DNA of 58,847 nucleotides from a virus. Taxonomy: Duplodnaviria; Caudoviricetes. The translations under genes and the position numbers were made by a program. How positions within the stretch are numbered: the first letter of the stretch is position 1; every line of letters begins with the position of its first letter. Where the stretch lies: the IMG/VR virus record IMGVR_UViG_3300014613_000029, positions 1 through 58,847 of that record; one strand, written 5' to 3'. Positions 886 through 47,560 of this stretch are shown here, in pieces. The notes under the pieces are model-generated. The model did no database searches. It saw only the letters and a program-made list of their open reading frames with translations, and was not told the DNA's origin.

Positions 886-889
886 TGAA

Positions 890-1105: not shown

Positions 1106-1148
1106 AAAATCCTCCTTTATAACTTCCGCCCCCTACCCACCTCATCGT

Positions 1149-2282: not shown

Positions 2283-2718
2283 CGTCTCTCCTTTGAGCTC
2301 GGTGATGGGCTCTAAGGCTTCTCTTTAAGACGCCTTTCTCTTTCACCATGTTGAATGCTTTCCACGCAGAGTACTTCCACATTCTCTCTACCTTTTCAAT
2401 CCAGTAGAGAGGAAGTTCGTAAGTGTAACGCTTTGAGTTTACTAAGACTGTGATTTGATCTGGGTTGTGAGTCCAGCTTAAAATTATGGGTGGTGTAGGC
2501 TTTCTATTTTGTAGTATTACTGAGTCGATAACCTCGCCGCAACCTGTACACCTCAGGCCCTCATACTTTTCGAGAGCACTTTCTGTTTTAGGAGGGTAGA
2601 AGGTTTCTTTAATTAGAAGTCCTTGGCATTTAGAACACCTCATCTCAACCTCCAAGTAGATATTGCACCTATAGTAGCACAAGTCCAACCGAGCATAGCA
2701 CTCCAGTTTCTGTCCCAT
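2263..2718 (-). CDS. Zn-ribbon hypothetical protein (likely start MRCSKC at 2643)
   Basis: CxxC...CxxC; GGAGG before the internal ATG. Confidence 0.55.
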   Translation of the reverse strand: MGQKLECYARLDLCYYRCNIYLEVEMRCSKCQGLLIKETFYPPKTESALEKYEGLRCTGCGEVIDSVILQNRKPTPPIILSWTHNPDQITVLVNSKRYTYELPLYWIEKVERMWKYSAWKAFNMVKEKGVLKRSLRAHHRAQRRDDENLYL

Positions 2719-2788
2719 GCGGGTAAGATAACGTTTAGTAAGAAGAGAGTAAGTAATATCCGATTAAACATTACTTTATACCTCCTTT

Positions 2789-3049
2789 CTACTTTATCCT
2801 CCAACACCTAACCCCTATGATTGTATTATCTTCTTTAATACACCTCGTCGTAAACTTTCGATCTCCGTATTTTGCTCGACTATTTCTTACAGTTCCCATA
2901 ATAGACGACTGAATTCTGTCAACTTCAACTCTTGATGAGCAAGGAACAAGGAAGGAATCTTCAACTTCCATTTCTAAAAAAGGGTAAAGCTTATTGCAAG
3001 TCCATTTTTGGGTTGATGGTATTGGAATAGTCTTTTCTATTTGGTACAT
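2789..3049 (-). CDS. Small phage protein with YPFxxMEVxDSF motif (putative DNA-binding)
   Basis: IEKTIPIP...YPFLEMEVEDSFLVP...IGVRCWR pattern typical of a common phage family. Confidence 0.6.
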   Translation of the reverse strand: MYQIEKTIPIPSTQKWTCNKLYPFLEMEVEDSFLVPCSSRVEVDRIQSSIMGTVRNSRAKYGDRKFTTRCIKEDNTIIGVRCWRIK

Positions 3050-3064
3050 AGCTTCTTTCCTTTC

Positions 3065-3137
3065 AAAAAAAAGCGAGGAGGGCTGGTACGTAATTTCGAC
3101 TTTACCCGAGGGCAGACGCCGCCAGTTCCCTCCCCCC
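3065..3137 (-). terminator. Rho-independent terminator with large loop
   Basis: Minus strand: GGGGAGGG(AA)CTGG pairs with CCAGCCCTCCTC, followed by T8. Confidence 0.6.
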
Positions 3138-3150
3138 TTTACTGTACAGA

Positions 3151-3654
3151 TTACTTCCCAAGAAAGGTCTTTGCTGAAATCTCAGTCCTTTCCTTACCCT
3201 TATCATCCATACCTTTTACCAGGACGAGCTTCCACTCTGTATCCTCGAAGGTCTCTTCGATCATCTCATGGAACTCCTCTTCGCTGTAGTCACCTACAGG
3301 AAGGCCTTCACCTTTTGCCTCTTTGTAAGCATCGTTCAGCTTAAAGAGTGCTTGAGGTTGAAGACTGTAAGTCTCAAGGACACGCTCACCAACAGTAGTT
3401 GGCTGATCCTCGTCGTCGTTCAGCTCATCAAGAACGGTGTACATAAAGGTTACCTTGGGTTGCTTTGTCTGTGAAAGACCCCAAGCAAGCTTTTCAAGAG
3501 AAGCTTTCGTTGTGCCTGTCATCACTTTGAGCTCTCCACCAAGTCCTTCAGGAATGTGAATGCTCATCCCTCCTTTGGAAGGTGCTTGCTCCTCACGAAC
3601 TTTACCTTTTCCTGCTGGTGCAGGCTTACTTTTACCTGGTCTGTTTACTGCCAT
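3151..3654 (-). CDS. Putative single-stranded DNA-binding protein (DUF669-like)
   Basis: Acidic OB-fold-like pattern; third gene of the Sak4-exonuclease-SSB module. Confidence 0.6.
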   Translation of the reverse strand: MAVNRPGKSKPAPAGKGKVREEQAPSKGGMSIHIPEGLGGELKVMTGTTKASLEKLAWGLSQTKQPKVTFMYTVLDELNDDEDQPTTVGERVLETYSLQPQALFKLNDAYKEAKGEGLPVGDYSEEEFHEMIEETFEDTEWKLVLVKGMDDKGKERTEISAKTFLGK

Positions 3655-12979: not shown

Positions 12980-13399
12980 ATGAACGCTTTAACTTTATCC
13001 AGTACGTACTCTGATCCGGGCCGGAAGGTAAAAAGGAGTGATTATGAACCTTTACCTTTAAAGTGGAAGGTCGTTTTGGATTACCGCCTTTCAGGTAAAC
13101 GCGTGCCGGAGATTTGCCGCTTGACGGGTTACTCACCACCTACGGTGTATCATATATTAAATCATGAAAGAACCCTACTTGCAAAACAATTCCTTTTAGA
13201 ACAAACGCAGGAAGAGTTTTCCTGTCTCTTCGAGAAGGTTACTAAAGTTATTGAAGAGAAGTTAGGCGATCCTGAAAAGCAGCTTGAGGCTGCCTCGTTA
13301 TGGCTCAAGGCTAATGGGAAGTTTAAGGATACTGGGAAGCTTCAAGTAAATGTGAGTGCTGAAGACATCGTCATGCAAATCTTGAACCAGGAAGGTTGA
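12980..13399 (+). CDS. terS: Terminase small subunit (HTH)
   Basis: HTH (VPEICRLTGYSPPTVYHIL); stop overlaps the TerL start. Confidence 0.7.
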   Translation: MNALTLSSTYSDPGRKVKRSDYEPLPLKWKVVLDYRLSGKRVPEICRLTGYSPPTVYHILNHERTLLAKQFLLEQTQEEFSCLFEKVTKVIEEKLGDPEKQLEAASLWLKANGKFKDTGKLQVNVSAEDIVMQILNQEG

Positions 13400-14994
13400 T
13401 GTTAAGTAAAGAAGGCAAAATCATCCAGGGCATGTTTCAAATCTCAACGAAGGAGGGCCCGCGCGTTCCGTTTAAGCTAAATACCTTCCAGCTTTGGCTC
13501 GATGAAATGATTCATGATCCAGACTACCGCTCTTTCATTCTGGCGAAACCCCGCCAGAAGGGTGGCTCATCCTACATCGAAGCAGTCCTCTCAACTCGTT
13601 GTCTTGGAAAGATAGGCACTCGAGCCGTCGTAATGAGTCATGAAGGAGAGGCTACGCAGCGTCTCTTGGACAAAGTCCACTTCTACCTTAAGTATACCAA
13701 CCCGCTACCTGCTTATGATCGTAACTCTAGAAACGAGCTCGCCTTCGGAAAGACAGACTCAACGTTTTACATTGGCACTGCTGGTGCACGGGCCTTCGGC
13801 AGGGGTGATACCATTACTGATCTGCACTGCAGTGAGTACTCGTTTTGGATGGATGCTGTGAAGCATTCAATCGGCCTCTTCCAAGCTGTACCGGCCTCAG
13901 GCTTTAAAATTCTCGAATCAACGGGCAATGGAAGGAATAACGACTTTCACTACATCTGGCAACATGCCGATCGGATGGGCTATAAACGCTTGTTTGCTCC
14001 GTGGTTCATCGATCTTGAGTATTCACGCTCGTTACCTTACGCAGACTGGAACCTTCGCGACGTTGATACTCAACATCTTACCTACCTCATAAACCTTCAA
14101 GGTAAGTTCAATCTCTCGATAGAGCAGATGTTTTGGTATGCCTGTAAACTCGCCGAACTTCGTGATGACCTTCACCTTATGCAGCAGGAGTATCCTGGTG
14201 AACCGGAGGAATGCTTCCAGGCGACGGGCGGGTCGATCTTTCCTGATGCTGAGCTCACCTCAAGTAAGGCCTGGCAAGATCTCTTACTCTTTAACATTAG
14301 GATGTTTGGCCTTCCAGACCATCCCAGGCCTGATCTTCACTACGTCTTCGGTGGAGATCCTTCGGGCGGTACGGGTCATGATGATGCGGGCCTTGTATGC
14401 TTTTGTGTAGAGACCTTCGAGCAGGTTTTACGGTTTAGTTCAAACACTACCGATCCAGTAATCTTTAGCAAGCTTCTTATCGATCTTGGTAGGTTTTACA
14501 ACCATGCCTACCTAGTCACCGAATCGAACAATCATGGTGCTGCCGTTATCCCGATCCTGAAGAGAGACTACGATCGTTCTCTTCTCTATTATTACAAACG
14601 CGCCACAACGAAGTCTCCGGCTAAATACGGCTGGCTTAATACCCAGCAACATAAACAAGAGCTGGTTGGTGGGATGCAAGAGATGCTTGATCAGTTTACC
14701 TTCTATGATAAGAAGACGGTGGAGGAACTTCAAGCCTTCGAAGAAGATGCTGAAGGCAGGATGGGCGCGAAGAGTGACAACCTCGTCATTGCCGCAGGCC
14801 TTGGCATGCTAGGGTGTATGAAGCAAATCAGGTTCAGGACGGATTACCTCACTCCACCACCTTTACCGAAGGAGAAGCCTTCTTCGTATATGTTCTGGAC
14901 ACTTGATGATGCGTTAAAGAGCATTGAGATGCAGCAAAGGCGAAGTGGATACTTCAAGCCACAAGTACAGATCGGGACGGGTTGGGTAAACTAA
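13396..14994 (+). CDS. terL: Terminase large subunit
   Basis: KPRQKGGSS Walker A, LHCSE Walker B, ESTGNG coupling motif, GGDPSGG and ESNNHG nuclease motifs. Confidence 0.95.
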   Translation: MMLSKEGKIIQGMFQISTKEGPRVPFKLNTFQLWLDEMIHDPDYRSFILAKPRQKGGSSYIEAVLSTRCLGKIGTRAVVMSHEGEATQRLLDKVHFYLKYTNPLPAYDRNSRNELAFGKTDSTFYIGTAGARAFGRGDTITDLHCSEYSFWMDAVKHSIGLFQAVPASGFKILESTGNGRNNDFHYIWQHADRMGYKRLFAPWFIDLEYSRSLPYADWNLRDVDTQHLTYLINLQGKFNLSIEQMFWYACKLAELRDDLHLMQQEYPGEPEECFQATGGSIFPDAELTSSKAWQDLLLFNIRMFGLPDHPRPDLHYVFGGDPSGGTGHDDAGLVCFCVETFEQVLRFSSNTTDPVIFSKLLIDLGRFYNHAYLVTESNNHGAAVIPILKRDYDRSLLYYYKRATTKSPAKYGWLNTQQHKQELVGGMQEMLDQFTFYDKKTVEELQAFEEDAEGRMGAKSDNLVIAAGLGMLGCMKQIRFRTDYLTPPPLPKEKPSSYMFWTLDDALKSIEMQQRRSGYFKPQVQIGTGWVN

Positions 14995-14995
14995 G

Positions 14996-15523
14996 ATGCC
15001 TAATCTTCGACAGAAGATTCTAAAGAAGATTTTTGAGAGGGGTGTTGAGTCGGTCTCTAAAAAAGACTTGAAAGCTCTTTTTAGTAAAGGAAGTAAGAGA
15101 ACTCATCTTTTTAGGCATGACTGGGATCCTTTAGAGCTTGCTAGAAGTGGGTTTGAAAAGACTGGCAGACCCGATGATATCAGAGGAATATATTATGCAA
15201 GAGACCCTGATGTCCTTCAGTACTTAGTTCCAGTTGAAAGTACTTCATATGCTAGTAAAATTAGACCTAACGTTGAAGGGATTCCCCGTCCCGGAGCAAA
15301 ATGGAAGGATATCTCTAGAGCTACTTTCGACGAGGATGTAGAGAACTTAGGAATTGACTTTGGAACGAGGAAAGACCCTTCTGGGTTACAAGAAGTAATT
15401 CAACTTGCTCCTAATAATGTTTTAGCAAAGATAAGGACAAAGAAGGGTATCATGTATCGTATTCTCAGCGTCTTAGGAGCTCTAGAGCTTTTAGAAAAGA
15501 GTAAAAGCGAAGAAAGGAGGTAG
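14996..15523 (+). CDS. ADP-ribosyltransferase-fold putative virion effector E1
   Basis: LFRH...GIYYA...QEVIQLAP, colinear with the two ART-like modules of the giant ejection protein. Confidence 0.55.
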   Translation: MPNLRQKILKKIFERGVESVSKKDLKALFSKGSKRTHLFRHDWDPLELARSGFEKTGRPDDIRGIYYARDPDVLQYLVPVESTSYASKIRPNVEGIPRPGAKWKDISRATFDEDVENLGIDFGTRKDPSGLQEVIQLAPNNVLAKIRTKKGIMYRILSVLGALELLEKSKSEERR

Positions 15524-15527
15524 TGCG

Positions 15528-16556
15528 ATGGCTACTGTATTACTAATAAACAAAAGAAACGAAGGTGTACCAATTGCGCTCAGACTGGCACAACAAGAAG
15601 GACATATTGTGAAGCTTTACTCATTAAACGATCACGCAGGATGCTTACAAGGCTTTAAGAATCCAGCCTTTATAGGCAACCCAAAGCGTATGGTAGAGCA
15701 ATACGATCTTGTCCTCAAGACCAATGAGTTCGGCGAGCGACTCCTCACCGACGATGAGTACTACCTAAAGGTCTGGAAGACTGTCCTTCCCTTACCTCTC
15801 TTCGATCAGTATGAATGCAAAGACGCCTTGAAGATCACCCTTGAGGGTTGGTTCACAGGCCAACACTGGTCACCTTTAGTAACCTTCTGTATCGACGACG
15901 AACGCCTAATGGACGGCGATCGAGGCGTCCTAACACCAAGTATGGGTTCGACGATGATCTCGCTCCGCGAAGGTAAGCTATTCGACACTCTTCTCCAACC
16001 TTTCACCGAGCTCCTCCAGAAGGTCTCCTACACCGGGCCTTTCAGTGTTGAAGCCTTCCTCAAGGAAGACAAAGTATGGTTAGGCTTCTTTCGCCCTCAC
16101 TACCAATACGATCATCTTCCCTTAATTTGTGAGCTTCTCCGGGAGCCCCTCTTTACCTTTCTTTACCAATTAACGCTTGATCAGAACTACCAACCACAGG
16201 TAAGTCAGGATGTAGCGCTTGGGGTAAGACTTAGTCTCAGTCCGTGGCCTCTTGAAGCTGATTGCAATCACCTGAAGGGTCGTTGTGATCTTGAAGTGCC
16301 GAAAGAAGCAAGGCCTCATGTCTGGCTTCGTGACGTATGCCGTAACGGTGATGAAGAGGAACGTACTGCAGGATGTGATGGAGTTCTCGCCTTCGTAACA
16401 GCTCATGGCAGTGATGTCAACGAAGCAAGGCGACGCGTTTACCGAACGATTAGTAACATTGTAAAGACAAAGGACGTGCAGTATCGCTCTGATGTCGGTT
16501 CGATATTTAACGACTCGATAAGTGAACTAAAGGGGCAAGGTTGGCTAAATGCCTAG
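15528..16556 (+). CDS. ATP-grasp ligase, PurD (GAR synthetase)-like
   Basis: RLMDGDRGVLTPSMGS resembles the PurD GDxGPNTGGMG loop; C-terminal G.dv.eArrrvY...YRSDVG matches the PurD C domain. Confidence 0.75.
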   Translation: MATVLLINKRNEGVPIALRLAQQEGHIVKLYSLNDHAGCLQGFKNPAFIGNPKRMVEQYDLVLKTNEFGERLLTDDEYYLKVWKTVLPLPLFDQYECKDALKITLEGWFTGQHWSPLVTFCIDDERLMDGDRGVLTPSMGSTMISLREGKLFDTLLQPFTELLQKVSYTGPFSVEAFLKEDKVWLGFFRPHYQYDHLPLICELLREPLFTFLYQLTLDQNYQPQVSQDVALGVRLSLSPWPLEADCNHLKGRCDLEVPKEARPHVWLRDVCRNGDEEERTAGCDGVLAFVTAHGSDVNEARRRVYRTISNIVKTKDVQYRSDVGSIFNDSISELKGQGWLNA

Positions 16557-17391
16557 TAGTGAACTACTAGCAAAGATGTTAGTAGAAGAAGCAGCTAAGA
16601 AGGGCTATCTTAAAGGCTCTAAAATAGCTCTAAGAGAGATTCGTAGGTCAACTATAAAAGACCTTCTAGGCAAGGTATTCAAGATAAGACCTGAGCCGGC
16701 TGAGGAAGTTCCTGGTTTATATAGAATGCACCCGCCAAAAATGCCTATAGAGCCTGTTTCTGAAGAACATGCAAGAGTAATGGAGGGTGTACTGCAGCCA
16801 ATGGCAGGAGTTCCGGTCGGTAGTAGACCAAGCGAGGATAGACTAAAATTAGTGGCTTCAATACTTGGGAACTTTAGATATGAAAGACTAGCTAAGTACC
16901 TTGCAACAAAACCTCCTGAGCAAGCCTATAAAACATATAGAAGACAGGGACGTGGTGAAACATTAAAAGAATATCTTCGGTCTCATACTCTCGATGTAGA
17001 TGTTTCTAACCTCGAAGAGTTTGTGAAAATACCTGTAGCACAGAGAGGAGTTCTAACTGCAGCTTTAAGAGCAGAACAAGCGGTAGGTGGTCCTATAGGA
17101 ACCTCAGAGCTTATGAGAACTCCTGTACCAGAAAAGACTGGTAGGACTCAATTATTCGTCAGCGGGCCTATGCACCGAGGAGGTTGGTCACCTTGGGACT
17201 GGTCTGATAGAATGTTACGTCATTTAAATAGTTTAGCTAAGCGCGGTTACCTTAATAAAAATAAGACCAGTGGCAGGTATAAGTTCTCTTCCACGGAAAA
17301 GGCTCGTAATCTTATAAAGACTTTAGGAGCAACATCTGGATTAGGGTTAGGACTAAGTGAAAGTACATTACCTCCCGGAGGGGAAGATTAA
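16549..17391 (+). CDS. Putative virion effector E2 with C-terminal winged-HTH-like segment
   Basis: HLNSLAKRGYLNKNKTSGRYKF; C-terminal Gly-rich hydrophobic tag. Confidence 0.55.
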   Translation: MPSSELLAKMLVEEAAKKGYLKGSKIALREIRRSTIKDLLGKVFKIRPEPAEEVPGLYRMHPPKMPIEPVSEEHARVMEGVLQPMAGVPVGSRPSEDRLKLVASILGNFRYERLAKYLATKPPEQAYKTYRRQGRGETLKEYLRSHTLDVDVSNLEEFVKIPVAQRGVLTAALRAEQAVGGPIGTSELMRTPVPEKTGRTQLFVSGPMHRGGWSPWDWSDRMLRHLNSLAKRGYLNKNKTSGRYKFSSTEKARNLIKTLGATSGLGLGLSESTLPPGGED

Positions 17392-17399
17392 CAAGTTAA

Positions 17400-17489
17400 A
17401 GGGGCAGGGGTGGTTGATGTGACGAGCTACCTCCTCTCGTTTGGCCGGAAGGATATGCCAGAGTCCGATAGGCTAGCCTCCCTGCCTCA
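17400..17489 (+). other. Intergenic stem-loop
   Basis: GGGGCAGGG (17401) pairs with CCCTGCCTC (17480), enclosing about 65 nt. Confidence 0.45.
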
Positions 17490-17511
17490 TCACTTTGTGA
17501 AAGGTTGAAGG

Positions 17512-18690
17512 ATGCCAAACGAAGAACAGAGCTTAGCAGAACAGATCGTTGGTGGAATTGGTAGCTTTCTTAGCCCAAGCGAAGCTGAGGCCTTTCCTAA
17601 AGTTAAATTTAAGACAAAGACTTTAGAAGAAGCAGTTGCTTTAGCCCGCAGTCGTATATTTGATAGAATTAAGTACGGCGTAAGAGAGGAGATTGCAGTA
17701 GAACCATCATGGAAGGCAACATGGTCAAACACCAGTGGCTGGTGGGTAGAGCAACCTGATAGGCTTAATACAAGCACTAAGTGGTTTAAAGCTTTATCTC
17801 CAGAAAAGCAAGAAGGACTTAAGGCTCTTTACAAGGATAAGAGAATAGGGCTTGGAGATGTAGTTAAACTAGATGCTAATGAAATCTTAGTGCCTTCCAA
17901 ATATGCAAGCAAACTTAAGAAGTGGTTTGAGCAGGAAGCTCCTCCACTGCCTCTTTACTCAGGATCATTCGAAGCAACTAAGTTAGGTAAGGAGGCTCCG
18001 GGAGCATTGATGAGAGAATCAGTGCCTGAGGCTATTGAGAGCAAGATGAGTCAGGTATCGCCGGAGGTTGAACTCTTTAAGCAAGCTGGAGGGATAGAGA
18101 AGAAAAAGAAATTGCCTCTTAGTAGTGTAGCTATTCCAGCAGCTTTTGGTGGAGGTTTAGCAATGTCTAGTTTACTCGAACCAAGCGAAGCCGAGGCATC
18201 GCCGATAGGCAAACTCGTCAGCAAGGTAGTAAAAGGCCCAGCTTCGAGTGCAGCCAGAGCACTCATCGGCCATGAGATCTCTGGTATGAAGATTAAGAAT
18301 GTTATTAAAGGTCGCGAACCTTGGCGTTACATCCTTTTCGAAGGAACAGATCAAGTGATGCCAGTAACGAAGGACGTGTTAAACGACCTTGCTCGGAAGT
18401 TTGGCGAAGATATGTACACCGGCATTGCTGAAGCTAGTCGACCTGCTGAGGCTCTCAAGATGGCTATCAAGAGTGCTGAGAGACGCCTCAGCCTTAAAGG
18501 TACAGGCTCTTATACAAAAGATGAGCTCATTGCTATGGAAGCTAAGCACGTTAACGTTCTTGAAGCTTTAGAGCTCCAGCGCGGGAAGCAAGCCTTAATT
18601 ATCTACAGAGGTGAGAGGATTCGTATTCCAGAGGTGTATGCTGATATTCTCGAGAAGTTCAACCTTGGTAGGAGAGTGAAAGGTAAGTAA
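17512..18690 (+). CDS. Two-module polyprotein E3 with PSEAEA|xP linkers
   Basis: IVGGIGSFLSPSEAEA|FP and AFGGGLAMSSLLEPSEAEA|SP. Confidence 0.65.
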   Translation: MPNEEQSLAEQIVGGIGSFLSPSEAEAFPKVKFKTKTLEEAVALARSRIFDRIKYGVREEIAVEPSWKATWSNTSGWWVEQPDRLNTSTKWFKALSPEKQEGLKALYKDKRIGLGDVVKLDANEILVPSKYASKLKKWFEQEAPPLPLYSGSFEATKLGKEAPGALMRESVPEAIESKMSQVSPEVELFKQAGGIEKKKKLPLSSVAIPAAFGGGLAMSSLLEPSEAEASPIGKLVSKVVKGPASSAARALIGHEISGMKIKNVIKGREPWRYILFEGTDQVMPVTKDVLNDLARKFGEDMYTGIAEASRPAEALKMAIKSAERRLSLKGTGSYTKDELIAMEAKHVNVLEALELQRGKQALIIYRGERIRIPEVYADILEKFNLGRRVKGK

Positions 18691-18692
18691 AC

Positions 18693-20474
18693 GTGCCAAC
18701 ACCAAACGACGAACATAAAGAATTCACAACCGACTGGATGCAACGTATCAAAACAGGCCTAGACTTCCGGAAACGTTACTCCTCTGAAAAGAAATGGCCT
18801 TCTTACCGGAAGTACTATCGTGGGCACTGGGAAGCTGACATCCTGCCGGTAAACCGCACTTTCTCCTATGGCCGTAACCTCATCCCTCGAGTTTACTTTC
18901 GCTCACCACGCGTTACCGTTACTCCTACCCGGCCTGACCTGGCTTGGCATGCTCGCGTCGTCGAAGAGATTGACAACCAGCTCATTCAACAAACCTTTCT
19001 TAAAGCAACCTTGAAGAAAGGCTCGTTAATAGGCTACCTTTGTGGTATCGGCCCGGTCAAGCTAGGTTACGACTCAGAGTTTGGCTTCGACCCTTCGCAG
19101 ATCATCTCACAGGATGGCTCAACCGTTACTCAAGAATCACGCACTAAGCCCGGCGAGCGTATCGAATACCATGAAGGCATCCAGCCTGGCTATCCATGGG
19201 CCCTTCCCGTCCAGCCCGAAGACGTTGTCGTACCTTGGGGATCGACGGATGCTCAAAGCTTACCCTGGATTGCTCATCGAATCTATCGTCCCTTAGACGA
19301 TGTTAAGCAAGACCAGAAGTACCTACAGACTAAAGACCTTCAAGGCTCACGTCAACCTGATGCTAACCGCAGGTGGGTAGGTGGTCGACGCATCGATAAA
19401 GATAAAGATATTCCCTTTGCTGAGCTCTGGGAAGTACGTGATTACAAATCACGCTCGATCTTTACCTTTTGTGAGAACACCTTGCTCCTCAGTCAGCAAG
19501 ATGCTCTCCAAGCAGCTGCTAATGGCCTTCCCTGGGAGTTCATCATCTGGAACGAAGATCCTGAGTACTTTTGGCCTATCGCCGACGTCGACATCATCGA
19601 GCCTCAACAACTCGAATTGAATGAAACTAGAACGCAGGAAAGTCGGCATCGACGTATCGCCCTTCTCAAATTTCTTTACAAGAAAGGTGCCTTTGCAAAG
19701 GAGATGCTTGAACACTTCCTTAGCGGGGAGGTAGGGCCTGCTGTAGAGGTCAATGAAGCTGAAATTCTTTCAAGCGCAATTATTGCGTTACAACCTCATA
19801 TTCCACCTGATCTTCGAGCAGCGGCGAACCAATGCCTCGTTGACATGCAAGAATCACTTGGCTTTGGGCCTAATCAGGCAGGACAATATAAGGCAGGTAC
19901 TCCTCCTTCTGCTTCGGAAGGAAACATCGTCAACCAAACTTTCGAAGCTCGTATCGACGAACGTCAAGATATCCTTAGTGATGTTCTCGTACGCATCGTC
20001 AAGAAATGGAATCAATATATCTTTAACTTTTGGACAGAGGGGAAGGTTACTCAGATTACTAGTCCTCAAGGTACGCCCTTCTGGGTAAGCTATACTGGTG
20101 ATCAGATCAAAGGTGATTACTTCCTTAACGTCGATCCTGAATCAGGAATGCCTGTCTCTCGCGTCTTACGATACCAAATGGCAGAGAATCTCTTCAAGCA
20201 GTTTAATGGTGATCAAACGGTAGACCAGCTCTTACTTCGTAAGATCTACCTGGATACCTTCTCCCAAGTCGAACCTCTTGTTAGGAATCTTTTGACTAGC
20301 CCACCTGAAATCAGCCCTCAGGAAGAGGGTCTGAGAAGGCAACCTCTAGCTCCTGGTGGGAAGGCCGGCAATCTACAAGATTTAGTAAAAGGCGTGGGTA
20401 ATCGAGGTGGCGGACCAAAGGCTCCAGGAGAGGTCATTCCGCTTGATAAGCTTGCGAAGGGAGGTAAGCTTTAG
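18693..20474 (+). CDS. Portal protein
   Basis: 593 aa; position and pattern (W..YrkyY.G, PRVYFRSPRVTV, I.EPQQ.ELN, SASE) typical of podoviral portals. Confidence 0.85.
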   Translation: MPTPNDEHKEFTTDWMQRIKTGLDFRKRYSSEKKWPSYRKYYRGHWEADILPVNRTFSYGRNLIPRVYFRSPRVTVTPTRPDLAWHARVVEEIDNQLIQQTFLKATLKKGSLIGYLCGIGPVKLGYDSEFGFDPSQIISQDGSTVTQESRTKPGERIEYHEGIQPGYPWALPVQPEDVVVPWGSTDAQSLPWIAHRIYRPLDDVKQDQKYLQTKDLQGSRQPDANRRWVGGRRIDKDKDIPFAELWEVRDYKSRSIFTFCENTLLLSQQDALQAAANGLPWEFIIWNEDPEYFWPIADVDIIEPQQLELNETRTQESRHRRIALLKFLYKKGAFAKEMLEHFLSGEVGPAVEVNEAEILSSAIIALQPHIPPDLRAAANQCLVDMQESLGFGPNQAGQYKAGTPPSASEGNIVNQTFEARIDERQDILSDVLVRIVKKWNQYIFNFWTEGKVTQITSPQGTPFWVSYTGDQIKGDYFLNVDPESGMPVSRVLRYQMAENLFKQFNGDQTVDQLLLRKIYLDTFSQVEPLVRNLLTSPPEISPQEEGLRRQPLAPGGKAGNLQDLVKGVGNRGGGPKAPGEVIPLDKLAKGGKL

Positions 20475-20956
20475 TGTCACCTTTAAAGATCAGTCCTGAG
20501 GTAAGAAAGAAGATCATTGAAAAGCTTCTCTCTACCCCTGAAAGGAAAGCTCTTTGGAAAGAAGTAGAGTCTGCGGTTGAAAGAATTTTAGCCTTACCAG
20601 AATCTAAGAGGGCTTACCTCCATGGATCATTTATTACTAAGAAGCCTAATCCACAGGATGTTGATCTAATGCTTAGAGTAACGAACAAGGCTTATGAAAA
20701 TGAAGTTTTAAATGTTCCTGAACATCTTCGTCCCGGAAACTTTTGGCCTCTGAAAGATGCTGAAGTTAAAACTGCTCCTATCGATCTTGGAGTAACAAGA
20801 AATTTAGCAGAAAGAGGCGCTAAAATACTAAGAACAAGTGGACGTAGACGATACGGCAAAGATTACAAATGGATCCGCATTGCTAGTCTCTTAGCAGCCT
20901 TAAAAGCTATGGGAGTAACGAAGGAAAAAGAAAAAGAAGAGGCGAAGGAAGAATAA
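20474..20956 (+). CDS. Minimal nucleotidyltransferase (Pol-beta superfamily) putative effector E4
   Basis: YLHGSFITKKPNPQDVDL fits the hGS...DxD motif, with a third Asp in PIDL. Confidence 0.75.
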   Translation: MSPLKISPEVRKKIIEKLLSTPERKALWKEVESAVERILALPESKRAYLHGSFITKKPNPQDVDLMLRVTNKAYENEVLNVPEHLRPGNFWPLKDAEVKTAPIDLGVTRNLAERGAKILRTSGRRRYGKDYKWIRIASLLAALKAMGVTKEKEKEEAKEE

Positions 20957-21238: not shown

Positions 21239-21859
21239 ATGCCAAAGATTCCTCCTGGTATTAGAGAAAGAATACTTAAGGCTGTTTTAGAAGGAGGTTC
21301 TAGACCTTCTGAAGAGATTCTTGAAAGAATCATAAAGGGTATCATTGAGGAAGCTCCTATTGTACCAAGAGGAATAAGGAAGACAGGGATAGTAGCTACA
21401 AATCCTATGACCGGCAATCTAATATCAGATGTAAGACTACAGTTAGGGAAGCCACGTACTACTGAGTTCAGTACATACAAAATTACACATGACCCTATAC
21501 GAGGTGAGGTCTTCGAGCCAGGTAAGAAGACAGTACGTTATGCACCTCAAGCTCAAGTTGAAGCTTGGGATGAAGTACTGAGAAACTGGGACGTAGTTGA
21601 TACCTTCTACCGAGGAGGCACAAAGGATCCTTGGACGGGAAAGAAGATAAAAACTAGTGGCCTCGTAGATGCTCTTGAGGCTATTGCTAGATGGACCGGC
21701 TATGCGGCTGGGCCTGAAGCAGGCTTACAAAAACATATTAGAGGACTTAAAGCTCCGGTGATAAAACCAGGAAGCTTAAACTCAGTCCTTTATGGTCTAG
21801 GACTCTTAAAGGCTTTTGAAGAGCTAGAGGAATCGAGAAGGAAGGTGGTTAAGAAGTGA
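21239..21859 (+). CDS. Putative virion effector E5
   Basis: N-terminal MPKIPPGIRERILKAVL and C-terminal SVLYGLGLLKAFEELEE tags resemble those of E1 and E4. Confidence 0.55.
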   Translation: MPKIPPGIRERILKAVLEGGSRPSEEILERIIKGIIEEAPIVPRGIRKTGIVATNPMTGNLISDVRLQLGKPRTTEFSTYKITHDPIRGEVFEPGKKTVRYAPQAQVEAWDEVLRNWDVVDTFYRGGTKDPWTGKKIKTSGLVDALEAIARWTGYAAGPEAGLQKHIRGLKAPVIKPGSLNSVLYGLGLLKAFEELEESRRKVVKK

Positions 21860-22119: not shown

Positions 22120-22560
22120 ATGGATTCAGTACAACTAGCGCGAATGGTAACAATCAAGCTAAGTCCTGAAGGCTTTAAAGTAGAGTTCGAAGGGGCGATG
22201 TGGGGGAAGCGTTACATTGACCAGGCTCATCGAGCAATGCTTCGTAGCTTTCCAAAGTACTTAGCAGAGGCGAAGAAGAAAGGAGAAAAAGAAGATGGTA
22301 AACGAAGCGACAGAGCAGGAACAGGAACAAGGCAAGGGGTTACAGACAGAGGGGAAGGAGAAGGGCTCTCCTCCGGAGAAGAAAGAGTCTTCGACAACTC
22401 AGCAAGTAACGAAGGTGGAGTTGACAGCGGAGCAATACAGCGCGATCCTGGACCGAATGGAGGAGCAGGACAAGATGATCGAGAGGCTGACAAGCTCCTC
22501 GAAAAAGGAGAAATCGTCGAGCGTCCAAGACATCGACGAGCTGGCTCGAGAAGGACGTGA
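22120..22560 (+). CDS. Hypothetical protein whose C-terminal part overlaps the scaffold gene
   Basis: GGAGG RBS; 266-nt overlap in another frame. Confidence 0.55.
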   Translation: MDSVQLARMVTIKLSPEGFKVEFEGAMWGKRYIDQAHRAMLRSFPKYLAEAKKKGEKEDGKRSDRAGTGTRQGVTDRGEGEGLSSGEERVFDNSASNEGGVDSGAIQRDPGPNGGAGQDDREADKLLEKGEIVERPRHRRAGSRRT

Positions 22561-23065
22561 GAAGAAAAAAGGTGAGCAGGTTGAGATTGATTGGGATTCA
22601 ATGGGTAATAGAGAGCTTGTAGGTGCAGTATTCCAGCTTATGGACGAGCACGTCGTCAAGCCTTTAAACGTTGAATTACAAACTATAAAGGTTATGAATG
22701 AGATAGATAAGGTCGCTGCGAAGCACGAAGACTTTTACGATTTGCAAGATAGGGTAAAGGAGATCGCAATTGAGAACCCTACCCTTTCAATAGAGAAGGC
22801 CTACAAGATGGCGAAGCTTGAGGCTGAGGAAGAGACGGGTGCTCAGCGAAAGAGCAAAGATCGCGACGAAGCAGGTAACGAAATCGATGAATCCTCTGCG
22901 AAGCGAGGAAAGGGCGTGCACTTACTCATCCCCAGCCGCCCAACACTAGGAGAACGCCCAGGTTTATCGGGAGGCTCGACTCGTCAAGGTCCAGCAAAGA
23001 CTACACGCGAAGCGGCTGAACGAGCTTGGGATACAGTGGTTGGTAAAGGGGGAGGCGTTCAATAA
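22295..23065 (+). CDS. Capsid scaffolding protein
   Basis: Acidic, coiled-coil, ends TTREAAERAWD; directly before the MCP. Confidence 0.75.
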   Translation: MVNEATEQEQEQGKGLQTEGKEKGSPPEKKESSTTQQVTKVELTAEQYSAILDRMEEQDKMIERLTSSSKKEKSSSVQDIDELAREGREKKKGEQVEIDWDSMGNRELVGAVFQLMDEHVVKPLNVELQTIKVMNEIDKVAAKHEDFYDLQDRVKEIAIENPTLSIEKAYKMAKLEAEEETGAQRKSKDRDEAGNEIDESSAKRGKGVHLLIPSRPTLGERPGLSGGSTRQGPAKTTREAAERAWDTVVGKGGGVQ

Positions 23066-23080
23066 AGAAAGGAGATTAAC

Positions 23081-24049
23081 ATGCCCCCTACTTGGACAGA
23101 AACAGTAGACAGTCTATTTTCAAGCACCTGGGCAGAGCGTAAGGCTCAGGCAGTCGATCAGGCCTTCCTAAAAACACCAGTCATTTTCTGGCTGCGTGAA
23201 GCAGGAAGGGTAGAACACATTAATGGGTACAAACGAATTGAGATCCCGTTAAATTACGGCAGTAACGAGACCGTACGATGGATTACCCGTGGTACTCCAG
23301 TACCCATCCAAGATAGCGAAATCATTACCATCGCTTACGAGAACTGGAAGTATATGGGTGTCTCCATTATGAGATGGTTCGAAGTAGATCAGCAAAACCG
23401 TGGTAAGGCACAGGCTATCAATCTTGTAGCAACACAGGTTGATACCGCAGAGCGAAGCTTGTGGGAAGAGATGGAACGAGTTGTCTTCGCTGATGGTACC
23501 GGCCCGAACGAGCCAAACGGTCTGAAGAACCTTATCTCAACAAGCGGGGCAAGCGACACTGCGACAGTGCACGGCATTGCCCGTGGGACCTACACCTGGT
23601 TTTGCAACCAGTCAAAAGCTGCTAGTGGTGCAGCTGAAGTTTATCTCGTCTCTGACATGCGAACATGTCTAAATGACGTAACGAAGTATTCCAAAAGCGA
23701 GCTCAAGGACATCTTCATGATCACTGACCAGGCAAGCTTCGAGCTCTATGAAGACGTTTGCCTTGAGATGAAGATCTTGATGAACACAAAGCTTGCCGAC
23801 GCAGGCTTCGATTCGATTGTTTTTAAAGGACGTCCATTGATTTGGAGTCCAAGTGCTCCCTCAGGCGAAATGAGGTTCGTTAATCCTAACTTTATTAAGC
23901 TTGTTACTGACGAAGGGTTCTTTATGGAGATGACCGACTGGAAGAGCATACCCGATCAACCATTTGACCGGGTAGCGCAGATCGTCTGTACGATGAACCT
24001 GGTAACAAGCCGACCGATCTGTCAAAAGGTTCTTTATAACATTACTTAA
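23081..24049 (+). CDS. Major capsid protein (HK97 fold)
   Basis: 322 aa; FADGTG...NGLKNLI, VHGIARGTYTW, DAGFDSIVFKG patterns; strong RBS. Confidence 0.9.
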   Translation: MPPTWTETVDSLFSSTWAERKAQAVDQAFLKTPVIFWLREAGRVEHINGYKRIEIPLNYGSNETVRWITRGTPVPIQDSEIITIAYENWKYMGVSIMRWFEVDQQNRGKAQAINLVATQVDTAERSLWEEMERVVFADGTGPNEPNGLKNLISTSGASDTATVHGIARGTYTWFCNQSKAASGAAEVYLVSDMRTCLNDVTKYSKSELKDIFMITDQASFELYEDVCLEMKILMNTKLADAGFDSIVFKGRPLIWSPSAPSGEMRFVNPNFIKLVTDEGFFMEMTDWKSIPDQPFDRVAQIVCTMNLVTSRPICQKVLYNIT

Positions 24050-26131: not shown

Positions 26132-26407
26132 ATGGGAGATGATTACAGGTCGCCGGACGGTGTACATGAGCTTACAAAGAAGAACACCGATGTGCTTGGT
26201 AATCTTTCACCGGCCTGCAAGGTAGCAAGCTGTCTCGACTTAACAGAATACCTTGCCCTAAGTGATGCTGCAAAGGACGGAGTTAAGATCGTTCTCTCCT
26301 GTGGCTTCGTTGATATGAGAGATGGTGAATGGGCAAGAAATACTCTATTTGCAATCTTTGATGCTCAGAGCACTACAAGAGCAAACCTGATCACAATGTT
26401 TGGTTAA
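26132..26407 (+). CDS. Hypothetical protein
   Basis: AAGGAG RBS. Confidence 0.65.
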   Translation: MGDDYRSPDGVHELTKKNTDVLGNLSPACKVASCLDLTEYLALSDAAKDGVKIVLSCGFVDMRDGEWARNTLFAIFDAQSTTRANLITMFG

Positions 26408-26432
26408 CCCTAACGCGAAAGGAGCCAAAGCG

Positions 26433-27131
26433 ATGACCTGGCAAAAAAAGATTAAAAAAGCGATCTTCACCTTAGCAATCGAAGGTTATGAAGGCGAAGT
26501 GACTGAAATAACCTTCCCTTTATTAAAACGTTACGCAGACAAGTTAAGAGCGGAGTTCGTAGTGATTAACATAAGGAGATATCCAGATTGGCCAATAACT
26601 TACGAGAAGCTCCAGATTTACGACCTCGGCCGTGAGATGGAAAATGACTGGAATATCTACATTGATGCAGACGCCCTTATCCACCCTGATACCTTTGACA
26701 TAACAACCATCGTTCCGAAGGACACGGTACTTCACTTTGGCTGTGATTATGCAAGTACACGCTGGCGATTCGATCAATACTTCCTCCGTGATGGTCGTCA
26801 GATCGGCAGTGGCAATTGGCTCACTATGGCTTCTGACTGGTGCCTCGATCTTTGGCATCCTCTGGAGGATATGACTCCTTATGAGGCGATCTCAAACATC
26901 TTTCCTATCGTCGATGAGCTAAAGAGTGGAGTCTTCAAGCCCTCACACTTCATTGACGATTATATTCTCGGCAGAAATATTGCTCGATATGGCCTGAAGT
27001 TCTACTCTTTGAGAGAGCATGTAGAAAAGACAAAGAGACCAATGCAGCTCTGGCATCAATTCCTCCTTCCAAAGGAGGCAAAGGTCATCGAGATGCAGAA
27101 GATCTGCAAGGCATGGGGGGTGATGTCATGA
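26433..27131 (+). CDS. Glycosyltransferase-like protein (GT-A fold)
   Basis: YEKLQI...IYIDADALI (DxD); AAGGAG before ATG 26433. Confidence 0.7.
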   Translation: MTWQKKIKKAIFTLAIEGYEGEVTEITFPLLKRYADKLRAEFVVINIRRYPDWPITYEKLQIYDLGREMENDWNIYIDADALIHPDTFDITTIVPKDTVLHFGCDYASTRWRFDQYFLRDGRQIGSGNWLTMASDWCLDLWHPLEDMTPYEAISNIFPIVDELKSGVFKPSHFIDDYILGRNIARYGLKFYSLREHVEKTKRPMQLWHQFLLPKEAKVIEMQKICKAWGVMS

Positions 27132-45500: not shown

Positions 45501-47560
45501 TTGCTAGGAAGTTAACACAGGTTGTTCAAGGTGGGAAGGGCTTAACAACGGAGAAGGTGTTTAAGACTTTAGGTGAGACTTTCAAACCAGCAATCGAGAG
45601 GATGAGAGAAGGAGGAGCTAAGGCTAAGCAAGTAGCTGCAACCTTTAGAAGTGCTAGAGTTCAGGAAACCTTTACGAAGAATCTCTCACGAGATGTTAAG
45701 GAGGCTACTAAGGACCTCTTGCCTAGTGAGAGGATAGAGTTTATAAGAGGTCTGTCTGGCACTCCTTCAGCAAAGTTGAAGAGCTCGGCTGCTCAGGCAG
45801 CTCTGCAAGAAGTTGATATCACAATTAATAAACTAGGTCTTCAGCCTCTCTATGAGGATGCGTTCAGGAAGCACTTCGGAGAGCTGATGGTCCATCCTCT
45901 TGAACAAGCAACCTCATCATTACCTCTTAGGACGATAATGAGTTATACCAAGCAGTTTGAGCGTAGGGCCGGTCTACAAAGTGGGCAGGTTACCTACACC
46001 CAAGCTCAAAACCTCTTAGATGAGATTATCACCCATCCGACCGTCAACCCAGAGATGAAGAAGTTGGCTGTCCAGCTTTACGATATGACGGCAATGACTC
46101 CAGTTGAGGCTGCGAAGGCTTCAAGCCATGCGATGGAGACCTTTCTTATTGACAAGCTTGTAAAGAATCCGGGGGTGGTCTCACCCGTGATGAAGTTGGG
46201 CTTCGTCGAATCAATCCATCCTAAGATTAAAGGAATGTATGTTTCGCGTGACTTAGAGCTTGAACTGGAGGGCATGATGAAGATGCATCGCTTTGCGAAT
46301 GATCTTTATCAGAAGTTCTTCTTAACGCCTTGGAAGACAAACAAGGTTGTTTTAAGACCGGCTGCTCATTTCAGGAACTTGATGAGTAATGTCATCCTTA
46401 ACGATTGGGGCGGCTTACCATTTTGGAGACAAGATGTTTACATACGGTCTCTCAACGAGGTACTAAGAAAAGGCCCTTTGTTTAAGGAGTTTACTAGGCT
46501 GGCAGGTGAGACACGATTTGCTACAGGTGAGGAGTTCTTCCGTCCACTAGCTAATGCAAGGCACGGAGACTCAGTTGCTGATATGATCTACCGGATTTAT
46601 GATGGTGCAGTTAGCCCGGCACGTAGTGCTTACGCGGCCGAGGAAACCTGGGCTAAGCTTGCGAAGTATATTCATAATCGTGAGCTAGGAATGAACAAGG
46701 TAGAAGCTGCAGTGGACGCTGTGAAGTGGACGTTTAACTATCAGGAGGTTACTCCAGCACTTGCTCGCCTCCGAACTGCTTGGTGGGGTGCGCCATTTGC
46801 TACTTGGACAAGCAAGGCTATTCCGTTGACAGCAGAGACAGCAGTGAAGCATCCTTTACGCTTTGGTAAGTGGGTCGCTCTTGGGTATTATCTTAATGGT
46901 TATGCTCTCAATCAGATTGGTATGAGTGAAGAGGAGTGGGAGAGTATGAAGAAGGTAATGCCTGATTATATTGGCAAATCGTTGATGTTAATGCTGCCCT
47001 ATCGAGGTGCAGAGGGTGAGTTGAAGATGCTTAATCTAACGTGGATGATTCCAGGCATTGGCGATCTGGCGGAGATTAGGCAGAAAGGTGAGGAGTCACC
47101 GGGCTCACTTGCTACGATAGCCTTTCAGAATCCGGTCGGTAATATTCTGGCAGCTTGGAAGCTTAATAAGAAGTTTGGTGGTGCTCCGATTTGGCACGAC
47201 TGGGAGTCTTATCCTACTCAAGCAGCGAAGATGTTGAATTACGCTTGGCAGCAATGGGCACCGGCGGTAGTACCTGGTGGAGCAGACTGGAAGGCTGTGT
47301 ATAATGCATTGACGGAAGCACCTGAAGCTCCTTCACCAGAGGAGGCTTTGGCGGGCCAGTTTGGTCTTAGGATAACGACAGTCTCTCCTGAAGCGGCGTT
47401 TAGAAGGAAGGCAGCTCTTGATAAGATCCATAGAGCAGAGATTATGCAAGAGATGAGAAGACAGTTGCGGTTCGCAACATCTCCTGAAGAGCAAGAGGAG
47501 ATTGTTAGGAGTGCCCAGGAGTATTTGATGAGTCAGGGTGAAGAGGAAGAAGAGGATTAG
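42557..47560 (+). CDS. Giant ejection polyprotein: N-terminal effector modules (two ART-fold) separated by AEA linkers, then a membrane-spanning core and a large-polyvalent-protein-like C-terminus
   Basis: ATG 42557 overlaps the upstream TAA. Seven AxA-type linkers. IYH...GVYFS...YDAII...QEVIAMNP ART pattern. C-terminal RNLMSN, KWTFNY, PFATW. Confidence 0.8.
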   Translation: MPSLAELLAGKIVEGLGPAEAEAAPKLPKGLKPKGMIPPEEYLKNLPKEELDRLWEYARSLVKDKKLKEPITKEMVPERLKKFFPVVGGGLVASQLLEPEEAEAAGPEAIWRKVVKEQVPEKLKKIYRIMQPMELMRPVSKESAQWPGTGMTALEPGGLYFAKEFGDLPMLLNPDIVIGHPWSAKQTMKELKTNFGYKKMSEAIIRGEIKPEAKVLNAENVEIWYNTLDQFSKTLKGKQKATFQNLLEDTKAGNWLEEISTPEEEAIQRKLTNWLSKQYDVAIFPDVAMGAGHLPQVVALNPGAVIGRTKKQGKWITRTLGVAGGGLLASQLGEEEAEAAPLTKPVREIYRQVSKEGKRIYHITDPRTAEKLLEKGIENPRIAKHFWEDWKPLGVYFSPNLESAAKLAPTGLGGEYTTVRKVLGRRHPNAPVDVVRGVLKSDRVLEIDESKLKQAFSDFANMNKPSEATSLKLLDETELNKLNQKWSRVLSKKYDAIIVNNVDGIKEAQEVIAMNPKSVKLFYKNLRWPIIAGATTVGASLGLDQEAAASGLMSPINLVGEAEAAPKLNKILFDQLWGSINRTEDEFLKQEFRQLLSKYGLTVENKTLADYARILEKEFPRTIKKVIPGAIIGGGLLTSQQKAEASGLQPPINLTGEALAQPLGEETGGLQPPIQLGGGPLEGLPPRPQPIAEGGEPIDLVQREPGLYALPEEKMRADVERQEAIERGEVLRKEPRGLLRRGAEMFLGEGPVSAVTHPIETAKLAAEGYTRPLEELGQEVSKQALAFGAAAMTAGIVNPITISMATRLGPNIAGKLLPALVKNAAIWSAFQLPFAMTGEVPQEKEVKEEAGVAHAIAFDPSVMGERPGKLGPPSPADVAEDLAWAGAMGAGFGLLGKVFVPAFKGLYRVFGWPFSPLKPYWAKVADLVWESHSIPTIAGIGAVGATVGALTDEEPLEGALKGAGLALGGKALIESGHLPNIFARKLTQVVQGGKGLTTEKVFKTLGETFKPAIERMREGGAKAKQVAATFRSARVQETFTKNLSRDVKEATKDLLPSERIEFIRGLSGTPSAKLKSSAAQAALQEVDITINKLGLQPLYEDAFRKHFGELMVHPLEQATSSLPLRTIMSYTKQFERRAGLQSGQVTYTQAQNLLDEIITHPTVNPEMKKLAVQLYDMTAMTPVEAAKASSHAMETFLIDKLVKNPGVVSPVMKLGFVESIHPKIKGMYVSRDLELELEGMMKMHRFANDLYQKFFLTPWKTNKVVLRPAAHFRNLMSNVILNDWGGLPFWRQDVYIRSLNEVLRKGPLFKEFTRLAGETRFATGEEFFRPLANARHGDSVADMIYRIYDGAVSPARSAYAAEETWAKLAKYIHNRELGMNKVEAAVDAVKWTFNYQEVTPALARLRTAWWGAPFATWTSKAIPLTAETAVKHPLRFGKWVALGYYLNGYALNQIGMSEEEWESMKKVMPDYIGKSLMLMLPYRGAEGELKMLNLTWMIPGIGDLAEIRQKGEESPGSLATIAFQNPVGNILAAWKLNKKFGGAPIWHDWESYPTQAAKMLNYAWQQWAPAVVPGGADWKAVYNALTEAPEAPSPEEALAGQFGLRITTVSPEAAFRRKAALDKIHRAEIMQEMRRQLRFATSPEEQEEIVRSAQEYLMSQGEEEEED

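Follow-up and report, generated by a model that had tools for sequence, protein, structure and literature searches.

The stretch of DNA analysed here, hereafter the window, covers positions 1 to 58,847 (58,847 nucleotides, nt) of IMG/VR record IMGVR_UViG_3300014613_000029, a linear virus record (Duplodnaviria; Caudoviricetes) with an estimated completeness of 77%. Its subject is the open reading frame (ORF) at 17512..18690 (+), which opens with ATG and encodes P0002, a protein of 392 amino acids (aa) that consists of a leader and two modules joined through a recurring junction peptide. The N-terminal leader, MPNEEQSLAEQIVGGIGSFLSPSEAEA (17512..17592, +; 27 residues, net charge -3), ends with PSEAEA in junction 1 and is followed by an N-terminal module (N-module) of about 173 aa (residues 28-200; 17593..18111, +). 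Junction 2, KKKKLPLSSVAIPAAFGGGLAMSSLLEPSEAEA (residues 197-229; 18100..18198, +), runs from basic residues through a Gly/Ala-rich, weakly hydrophobic part into LLEPSEAEA, and the remainder is a C-terminal domain (C-domain) of 163 aa plus the stop codon (residues 230-392; 18199..18690, +), modelled as a beta-meander with a three-helix insert and a C-terminal helix. In both junctions PSEAEA is encoded by a copy of a 17-nt repeat, CCAAGCGAAGCTGAGGC at 17575..17591 (+) and CCAAGCGAAGCCGAGGC at 18181..18197 (+).

Six-frame translation of the window revealed four occurrences of [PS]xEAEA, two in the P0002 ORF (17575 and 18181) and two (42608 and 42851) in the ORF of a giant protein of 1667 aa (42557..47560, +; ATG at 42557). 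Likewise, a hidden Markov model (HMM) of the linker, built from 89 distinct instances, matched only these two proteins in the six-frame translation. The giant protein comprises a homologous leader, modules 1-4 and a C-terminal part of about 1000 aa, with EAEA junctions, some of them degenerate copies, at about 42614, 42857, 43562 and 44237, ahead of the four modules. It gave no sequence or family match (Pfam and PHROG; PDB with the C-terminal part), and an IMG/VR search with its C-terminal part returned no relative.

An earlier inspection of the letters alone (the sequence-only reading) had placed the giant protein 24 kb away, had seen in its leader a parallel to that of P0002, and had taken the second linker of P0002 as the divide between two domains of roughly 170-200 aa. 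These statements agree with our measurements: the distance is 23.9 kb, the two parts are 173 and 163 aa long, and the leaders, MPNEEQSLAEQIVGGIGSFLSPSEAEA before FP in P0002 and MPSLAELLAGKIVEGLGPAEAEA before AP in the giant protein, align as peptides and are partly alike in DNA. The P0002 leader is homologous, moreover, to the leaders of stand-alone C-domain proteins (P0007 and that of the related locus L002). What could not be upheld is the description of P0002 as independent of the giant protein, given that both have the homologous leader and draw on a common pool of modules.

The same reading had called the two junctions near-identical in DNA, and this stands only in part. The string CCAAGCGAAGCYGAGGC is found exactly twice in the window (17575 and 18181), compared with 0.01 occurrences expected from shuffles; exact identity extends over no more than 11 nt, and the sequences on either side show no relationship. 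For two copies of one peptide under the codon usage of this genome, four or more of six codons coincide with P = 0.14, and the likeness of the junction DNA therefore adds little beyond the shared peptide. The two-junction arrangement itself is real and not an assembly artefact of one sample, since a contig of 971 nt from a groundwater run other than the source (X2; window 17330-18300) spans both junctions with 0 differences. The contigs of four runs contained no joint or deletion form between the repeats, although contigs cannot show absence.

The N-module is an orphan. It belongs to no Pfam or PHROG family and has no ESM Atlas match; neither a word-seeded search of 5.8 billion proteins (lengths 95-303 and 304-2000 aa) nor a full-length search returned a homologue, and hhalign gave a probability below 1% against the other module families. 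P0002 as a whole has 0 Pfam families.

The C-terminal domain family and module exchange

A word-seeded search with P0002 returned four relatives, with 22-45% query coverage, all on the C-terminal part. When a profile of the linker plus the C-domain (A2) was searched against 1.84 billion representatives, 221 proteins (clusters) were obtained at E <= 1e-3, 169 of them at E <= 1e-10, the best 150 of the 221 ranging in size from 131 to 1081 aa. Architectures were counted in a family set of 154 proteins. The C-domain is C-terminal in 142 of these and is followed by more than 40 residues in 12; about 97 members carry N-terminal extensions (fused members) and 57 have only a short leader. The junction HMM located a junction at the N-terminal boundary of the C-domain in 109 members (71 of the 97 fused and 38 of the 57 short-leader proteins), and at least two junctions, up to three, occur in 14.

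The sequence-only reading had regarded its linker claim as lost if the protein should fold as one domain across the linker or if homologues should lack the motif. Besides the 109 junctions just mentioned, the AlphaFold model of the C-domain (45-row alignment; predicted local distance difference test, pLDDT, 87.5; predicted template modelling score, pTM, 0.76) points the other way, as the confident part of the predicted fold begins directly after EAEA-SP and the 30 linker residues have a low pLDDT of 50-58. That reading had also proposed AlphaFold and Foldseek on each module, which proved fruitful only in part: the C-domain model is confident and yet matched nothing in PDB or BFVD at E <= 1e-3 (Foldseek), and the single-sequence model of the whole of P0002 (pLDDT 41) is too poor for use. 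A sequence profile of the C-domain against PDB gave one chance-level match (E 0.022) and none of significance; no Pfam or PHROG family, no usable ESM Atlas match and no match among INPHARED phages were found, none of 38 pattern matches in GTDB genomes was a relative, and an IMG/VR search with P0002 alone yielded no relative. Collection scans with 8-residue patterns returned 127 and 444 stretches, of which 3 each encoded C-domain relatives; by a rough estimate such pattern matches are expected by chance at collection scale, and nothing is concluded from them. Within the family R272 is conserved in 100% of the sequences and S245, G253, P373 and L380 in at least 95%, and no obvious catalytic set is apparent among the conserved positions.

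A direct view of what happens at the junction comes from L002, the closest relative. Its protein of 192 aa, MEEQEQSLAAQIVGGIGSFLGPSEAEA followed by SPVGK..., contains leader, PSEAEA and C-domain only. The DNA alignment of L002 and the window is collinear up to ...AGCTTTCT, and homology resumes at CCAAGCGAAGCCGA...; in between the window has 606 extra nt in frame, i.e., 202 codons (residues 28-229), bounded on the left by copy 1 and on the right by copy 2 of the PSEAEA-coding repeat. Other close relatives carry other modules in the same place. In P0003 and P0004 (C-domain 74% and 71% identical over the domain columns) the orphan N-module is replaced by a homologue of ORF 14996, a free-standing ORF of cargo type in the window (14996..15523, +) with a hydrophobic stretch and an acidic tail at its C-terminus. 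In P0006 the C-domain is preceded by a DUF6932 nucleotidyltransferase like that of ORF 20474, likewise free-standing in the window (20474..20956, +; Pfam DUF6932, 2.3e-11), in P0005 by yet another module, and in P0007 by none. The modules of P0003-P0006 are all joined through a G/A-rich stretch and L-x-P-x-EAEA followed by SP, and the nearest C-domains (64-74% identical) thus have either the ORF 14996-type module (P0003, P0004) or no module (P0007).

The search for the same modules fused elsewhere, which the sequence-only reading had suggested, was also carried out (blastp, E <= 1e-3, 154 proteins). Fused to the C-domain we found the ORF 14996 type 20 times, DUF6932 23 times, module 2 of the giant protein 22 times and its module 3 six times; the orphan N-module of the window was found fused in 0 of the 154. 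Pfam annotation of 96 fused members gave DUF6932 (16), Polbeta (11), NTP_transf_2 (6) and ART-PolyVal (1). ORF 14996 groups with the giant protein's modules 2 and 3 in a single superfamily (hhalign 96-99%), three paralogous copies of which lie in the window, one free (14996-15523) and two within the giant protein (42869-43549 and 43616-44239). An ART-PolyVal identity for this superfamily was considered and kept as a weak lead only: besides the one fused relative, giant module 3 reached E 0.023, below the cut-off, and 0 of 10 further relatives matched.

To follow the extensions through the family, a FastTree tree was built from the folded C-domain only, with the linker columns excluded (152 of 154 rows). 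Its tips were classified as having no N-extension (55), an ART-like superfamily module (41), another module (31), a nucleotidyltransferase (22), or both of the named types (3). The class changes at least 72 times on the tree, as compared with 80.3 +/- 3.2 changes after label shuffling (5 of 500 shuffles at or below the observed value), although the count is an upper-leaning estimate, inflated by weak resolution among tips that are 50%-identity representatives, which weighs against the exchange reading. Among pairs with at least 45% C-domain identity, 169 of 247 differ in class, and the turnover of N-extensions is plainly fast. Taken together, the ends of the L002 indel in the repeats and the recurrence of modules support exchange at the linker, as judged from sequence comparison. 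Two further proposals of the sequence-only reading are thereby borne out, namely that the linker is a reusable part, since the same junction stands before unrelated modules on both P0002 and the giant protein, and that it is a point of module exchange, as seen in the 606-nt indel and in the swaps of P0003, P0004 and P0006.

The junction peptide

The motif EAEA occurs 97 times in 82 of 155 family proteins, against 2.7 occurrences expected from composition. The profile of these instances has K/R at positions -22 to -19, Gly/Ala/Leu at -18 to -7, a core of L-L-x-P-x and E-A-E-A, and then [S/F/G/M/A]-P-[L/I/V]-G-K. Aligned across the family, 96% of the sequences keep A(-1), 87% A(-3), 84% P(+2) and 81% E(-4), which equals the conservation of the C-domain fold core; P(-6) is kept in 73%. 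The E-A-E-A-x-P core is kept across proteins that are about 25-30% identical. One could think of an inherited low-complexity spacer without function, its pattern being due to common descent, and the Gly/Ala-rich part, variable in both length and sequence, would suit this idea. Such a spacer would hardly, however, keep its core as well as the fold core at such low identity, precede unrelated modules and also sit in leaders, or show EAEA in such excess, and we consider it the least probable of all the explanations weighed here. From a motif that is conserved yet predicted to be unstructured, and that is present also in leaders which link nothing, we infer a recognition motif rather than a passive spacer.

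The order of basic residues, hydrophobic stretch, P(-6), A(-3) and A(-1) also brings to mind Sec-type signals or anchors, which host signal peptidase I would cut at A-x-A, so that the modules would be exported or become membrane proteins. As far as the cut site is concerned the resemblance is good, from the frequencies of A(-3), A(-1) and P(-6) to the S/F/G/M/A at +1 and the P at +2, and 6 of 38 N-terminal leaders (e.g., P0109 and P0081) look like true signal peptides. The regions ahead of the cut site tell against it: 20 of the 38 leaders are net negative, including P0002 and its nearest relatives, and the P0002 leader, with its charge of -3 and a best 15-residue hydropathy of 0.99, is not signal-peptide-like. 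The mean hydropathy over the 18 residues preceding the motif is 0.55, and only one third of 66 internal linkers reach 1.6 over 15 residues; by these values the hydrophobic stretch is too weak for a membrane helix. In addition, by the rules of Sec export, repeated internal signals would alternate in topology, so that every other site would lie on the incorrect membrane side, and the C-domain gene is coupled to the portal gene. Export is therefore improbable in our view.

Trimming of EA-EA-xP by dipeptidyl peptidases was also considered and was dropped, as one junction (EAEA-AG-P) breaks the pattern. Such trimming operates on yeast alpha-factor, and to our knowledge no such pathway exists for cytoplasmic bacterial proteins.

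The free-standing ORFs indicate how the junction is composed. When aligned with its fused homologues, ORF 14996 stops between 1 residue short of the EAEA end and 2 residues past it (4 of 4), and the C-terminus of ORF 20474 aligns 1 to 3 residues past it in 4 of 4; the two ORFs share the junction-type hydrophobic tail, with ends at -1 to +3 of the EAEA end in all 8 alignments. At the other side, several leaderless C-domain proteins start at the x-P position. As free ORFs end at EAEA and leaderless proteins start at x-P, the junction corresponds to a natural end fused to a natural start. Met-Pro starts are strikingly frequent in this phage group (56 of 97 fused family proteins) and are found in the window at ORFs 14996, 16549, 17512, 20958, 21239, 23081, 34635, 37627, 41700 and 42557; the portal ORF (GTG, 18693) also has Pro second, and the internal modules begin with x-Pro after EAEA. 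This fits junctions being fused gene ends. Two further ORFs, 16549-17391 and 21239-21859, which are absent from L002, have an MP-amphipathic start and hydrophobic-plus-acidic C-terminal tails (...GLGLGLSESTLPPGGED and ...GLGLLKAFEELEESRR, respectively), and are likely to be additional free-standing cargo genes around the portal. A literature search (the motif; phage polyproteins and ejection proteins; DUF6932 together with phage), which did not cover supplements, returned nothing on the junction or the family.

Head-block setting and proposed mechanism

The portal gene (18693..20474, +; 593 aa) starts with GTG 2 nt after the stop codon of P0002 and lies between the genes for TerL (13396..14994, +; 532 aa, phrog_2) and for the acidic scaffold-like protein (22295..23065, +) and the major capsid protein (MCP; 23081..24049, +; phrog_9953, 2.6e-32). 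The portal protein has no Pfam, PHROG or PDB match; tblastn aligned 82% of it, at 3e-14, with a 'head to tail joining protein' of a distant annotated podovirus, whose genes run TerL, small ORF, portal, putative scaffold, MCP, and it also matched a Microcystis phage 'portal protein' (3e-4). One order, TerL, PurD-like gene, C-domain gene, portal, Zn-ribbon, scaffold, MCP, is common to the window, L002, L003 and L004; in full, L002 reads TerS, TerL, PurD-like, 192-aa protein, portal, Zn-ribbon, scaffold, MCP, and L007 reads C-domain gene, portal, Zn-ribbon, scaffold. (L003 and L005 are the same contig, as are L004 and L006.) The C-domain gene adjoins the portal gene in all five loci (window, L002, L003, L004 and L007), with stop and start overlapping or 2 nt apart. 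Upstream of the P0002 ORF, an intergenic block of about 60-70 nt (17430-17490) is essentially 100% identical to L002 while the flanking coding DNA is more diverged, and it accompanies the C-domain gene. Rfam returned nothing for this block and its fold z-score (-0.86) is unexceptional; it may be a promoter or regulatory element.

The PurD-like ATP-grasp homologue (15528..16556, +; GARS_C E 9e-5, below the cut-off; PDB PurD E 0.003) lies upstream of the C-domain gene in all four loci that reach so far (L002 3702-4727, L003 1516-2574, L004 4018-5286). This constancy, together with the Glu and Lys side chains of the motif and the full-length copy in L004 (422 aa, GARS_A 5.8e-14), might suggest that E-A-E-A/x-P-x-G-K is a substrate of this neighbour, its Glu carboxylates being ligated or cross-linked as by graspetide or glutamylation enzymes. 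The copies of the window, L002 and L003, however, have lost about 70 residues of the lid/ATP-binding region, match only GARS_C weakly, and are probably inactive; the genes are separated by gaps of 66-120 nt, in the window even by a whole ORF; and we know of no such chemistry for PurD-type enzymes. We accordingly hold this modification to be very improbable. The loss of the lid suggests a non-catalytic role of the PurD-like protein in head assembly.

The explanation that we favour overall, at about even odds (a probability near 0.5), is that P0002 is a modular cargo protein of the head block whose modules are exchanged at the junction and whose motif is probably a processing site. The ORF would thus encode a modular head-morphogenesis protein of an uncultured podovirus-type groundwater phage, with the C-domain as a core protein of the lineage that would be made together with the portal, be built into the procapsid, and probably leave the virion along with the DNA. 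The portable junction, consisting of basic residues, 10-15 Gly/Ala/Leu, L-x-P-x-E-A-E-A, and x-P with basic residues, would have arisen where the C-terminal tail of one such protein, a small cargo, became joined to the 'M-P' beginning of another. Recombination within its short conserved coding sequence would insert, delete and exchange modules among P0002, the giant internal-type protein and the free-standing cargo genes, and the orphan N-module of the window would be one 202-codon insertion of this kind. At the protein level, the motif would most likely be a site of endoproteolysis after E-A-E-A, at which the leader would be shed and the modules released, either ahead of the capsid stage or within the capsid, by an enzyme that the head module does not encode, possibly a host protease. 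Endoproteolysis is favoured because of the small residues at -1 and -3, the propeptide-like leaders and the expectation that the products would equal natural free-standing forms; a host enzyme is plausible, since no protease of the phage itself came to light; and the carriers would be virion proteins because of their position in the head and internal-protein blocks and the coupling to the portal. Cleavage and virion delivery are, on these grounds, plausible.

Several observations weigh against this explanation. No prohead protease of the S78, S77, S49 or ClpP families and no S26 signal peptidase were found in six frames of the record (77% complete), and no peptidase domain in the 38 ORFs scanned with Pfam and/or PHROGs; similarly, L002, L003, L004, L007 and the distant annotated podovirus have no assignable protease ORF from portal to scaffold, the small ORFs there not having been family-scanned. 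The linker HMM found no motif in MCP, scaffold or portal, unlike classic maturation sites, and in podoviruses whose head module has a separate scaffold, maturation often involves no proteolysis. Furthermore, 45 of the 154 family members have no detectable junction, and neither structure nor sequence links the C-domain to a relative of known function, so that its supposed anchor role is read only from gene position.

The failure to find a protease in the record, and a head module of scaffold-plus-MCP type without one both here and in the distant annotated relative, would be expected if the motif were an uncleaved docking or packaging tether and the chains stayed whole like beads on a string. 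The hydrophobic and acidic peptide would then act as a short linear motif with the scaffold, the portal or the inside of the capsid as its binding partner, and each module would be recruited yet still be able to thread through the tail, comparable to an encapsulin cargo-loading peptide or an uncut T4 targeting sequence. A motif that is conserved yet disordered, and that is met at N-termini, internally and as the C-terminal tail of free-standing cargo ORFs, suits a tether as well. Speaking against it, small side chains at -1 and -3, with A(-1) nearly invariant, look more like a cut site than a binding helix, the leaders of 10-30 residues before the motif resemble propeptides, and no partner was found; a predicted complex of portal (residues 1-545) with linker and C-domain scored 0.00, which speaks neither for nor against binding. 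The uncut tether is the main rival of processing, export and ATP-grasp modification being minor ones, and we regard it as rather unlikely. A more specific form of the processing explanation, i.e., that protease-less podophages use the end-to-start junction as a plug-and-play site on two carriers, and that the injected effectors recombined into it are later freed by a hijacked host protease or a novel one, is put forward tentatively, as having somewhat less than an even chance.

None of the known systems that we compared combines these features, and the portal-coupled C-terminal carrier domain of unknown fold, the end-to-start junction and the lack of a cognate protease are the distinctive points. 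The ejected core proteins of the T7 gp16 type are large internal proteins at the end of the structural block with N-terminal enzyme or add-on domains; the likeness of the giant protein to them is positional only, with no sequence or family match. The capsid targeting sequence of T4 has about 10 residues and is cut after L/I-x-E by the phage protease gp21, no relative of which (S77, PF03420) was found in six frames of the record. This sequence is the sole common feature of the T4 internal proteins (IPI-III, Alt), a short N-terminal head-targeting peptide on otherwise unrelated and fast-evolving proteins (PMC3012670), much as the leader or junction is here; here, in contrast, a hydrophobic stretch precedes P-x-EAEA and the peptide also occurs internally, chaining modules.

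Polyvalent proteins (Iyer et al. 2017, PMC5512222) likewise string together several domains of effector type in shuffled combinations and are believed to be carried along with the DNA. With a leader and two modules, and relatives of up to 1081 aa, P0002 falls within their range of two to fifteen domains, and DUF6932/Pol-beta nucleotidyltransferases and one ART-PolyVal match occur among the fused relatives. The word 'linker' is absent from the main text of that paper, and release is ascribed there to built-in zincin-like peptidase domains (PMC5512222), whereas the present fusions are built around a defined junction peptide and a dedicated, conserved domain at the C-terminus, and no peptidase domain was seen. 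In the MuF polymorphic toxins (PMC5576092), too, a conserved portal-adjacent head domain carries variable effectors, although with the MuF domain at the N-terminus and the variable part at the C-terminus, a polarity that is reversed in the C-domain family; a MuF domain (PF04233) was not found in the record. Precedents for a host enzyme that cuts a short N-terminal motif of phages without their own head protease are found in P22, where 20 N-terminal residues of the ejection protein gp7 are taken off by a host protease (PMC4992974), and in 80alpha, where host Prp cuts the capsid and scaffold proteins at a motif present on non-homologous phage proteins too (PMC5744158); those motifs are different ones and stand in single N-terminal leaders, not between chained modules. 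From protease-processed head polyproteins, finally, the present case differs in that no protease was found and in that the motif is not in the phage's own capsid, scaffold or portal protein.

Were a protease or a docking site to read the junction, a simple and transferable rule would govern which proteins the phage carries into its host, and the same rule would explain how new effector modules are acquired. It would rest on at least 221 protein clusters without annotation, structural relative or cultured member, and it would make testable the question of how accessory cargo is loaded and released in podoviruses that lack a head protease. Should a plug-and-play junction be cut by a host or novel protease, it would be the counterpart, in bacterial viruses, of polyprotein processing by cellular proteases in eukaryotic viruses, and the junction would offer a ready-made tag for loading foreign proteins into capsids. 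The module pool, with its nucleotidyltransferases, its faintly ART-PolyVal-like superfamily and its many orphans, can moreover be taken as a catalogue of candidate anti-defence and takeover proteins.

Surrounding genes

The head block also contains two SU10-adaptor-like genes. In L002, TerL (880-3480) has 866 aa, compared with 532 in the window, owing to an internal insertion of about 330 residues with an intein-like look. Within the structural block of the window, the segment 26400-28854 holds a radical-SAM-like ORF and a nucleotide-sugar epimerase (phrog_540, 2.2e-39), preceded by ORF 26400-27131, which has no PHROG match. Further downstream, ORF 39245-40258 ends in a glycine-zipper-like C-terminal tail of about 60 residues (...GGWAGVGVGGGAMMGMGAGPLGAIAGGLLGLAGSLFS) and is followed by two unannotated ORFs and then by the giant protein; its location makes it a possible ejection protein that inserts into membranes. 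The window yielded neither a tRNA nor a match to an Rfam family.

The other strand encodes a family-A DNA polymerase, a ligase, a PD-(D/E)XK nuclease and four genes of queuosine-precursor synthesis, the latter being homologues of GTP cyclohydrolase I (1149-1712), QueC (51923-52627), a radical-SAM protein (QueE-like; 56691-57341) and PTPS/QueD (57972-58766), all on the (-) strand. This 7-deazaguanine (queuosine-precursor) pathway suggests that the phage DNA is modified. The DNA polymerase (54264-56501, -) carries a fused domain of the uracil-DNA-glycosylase superfamily.

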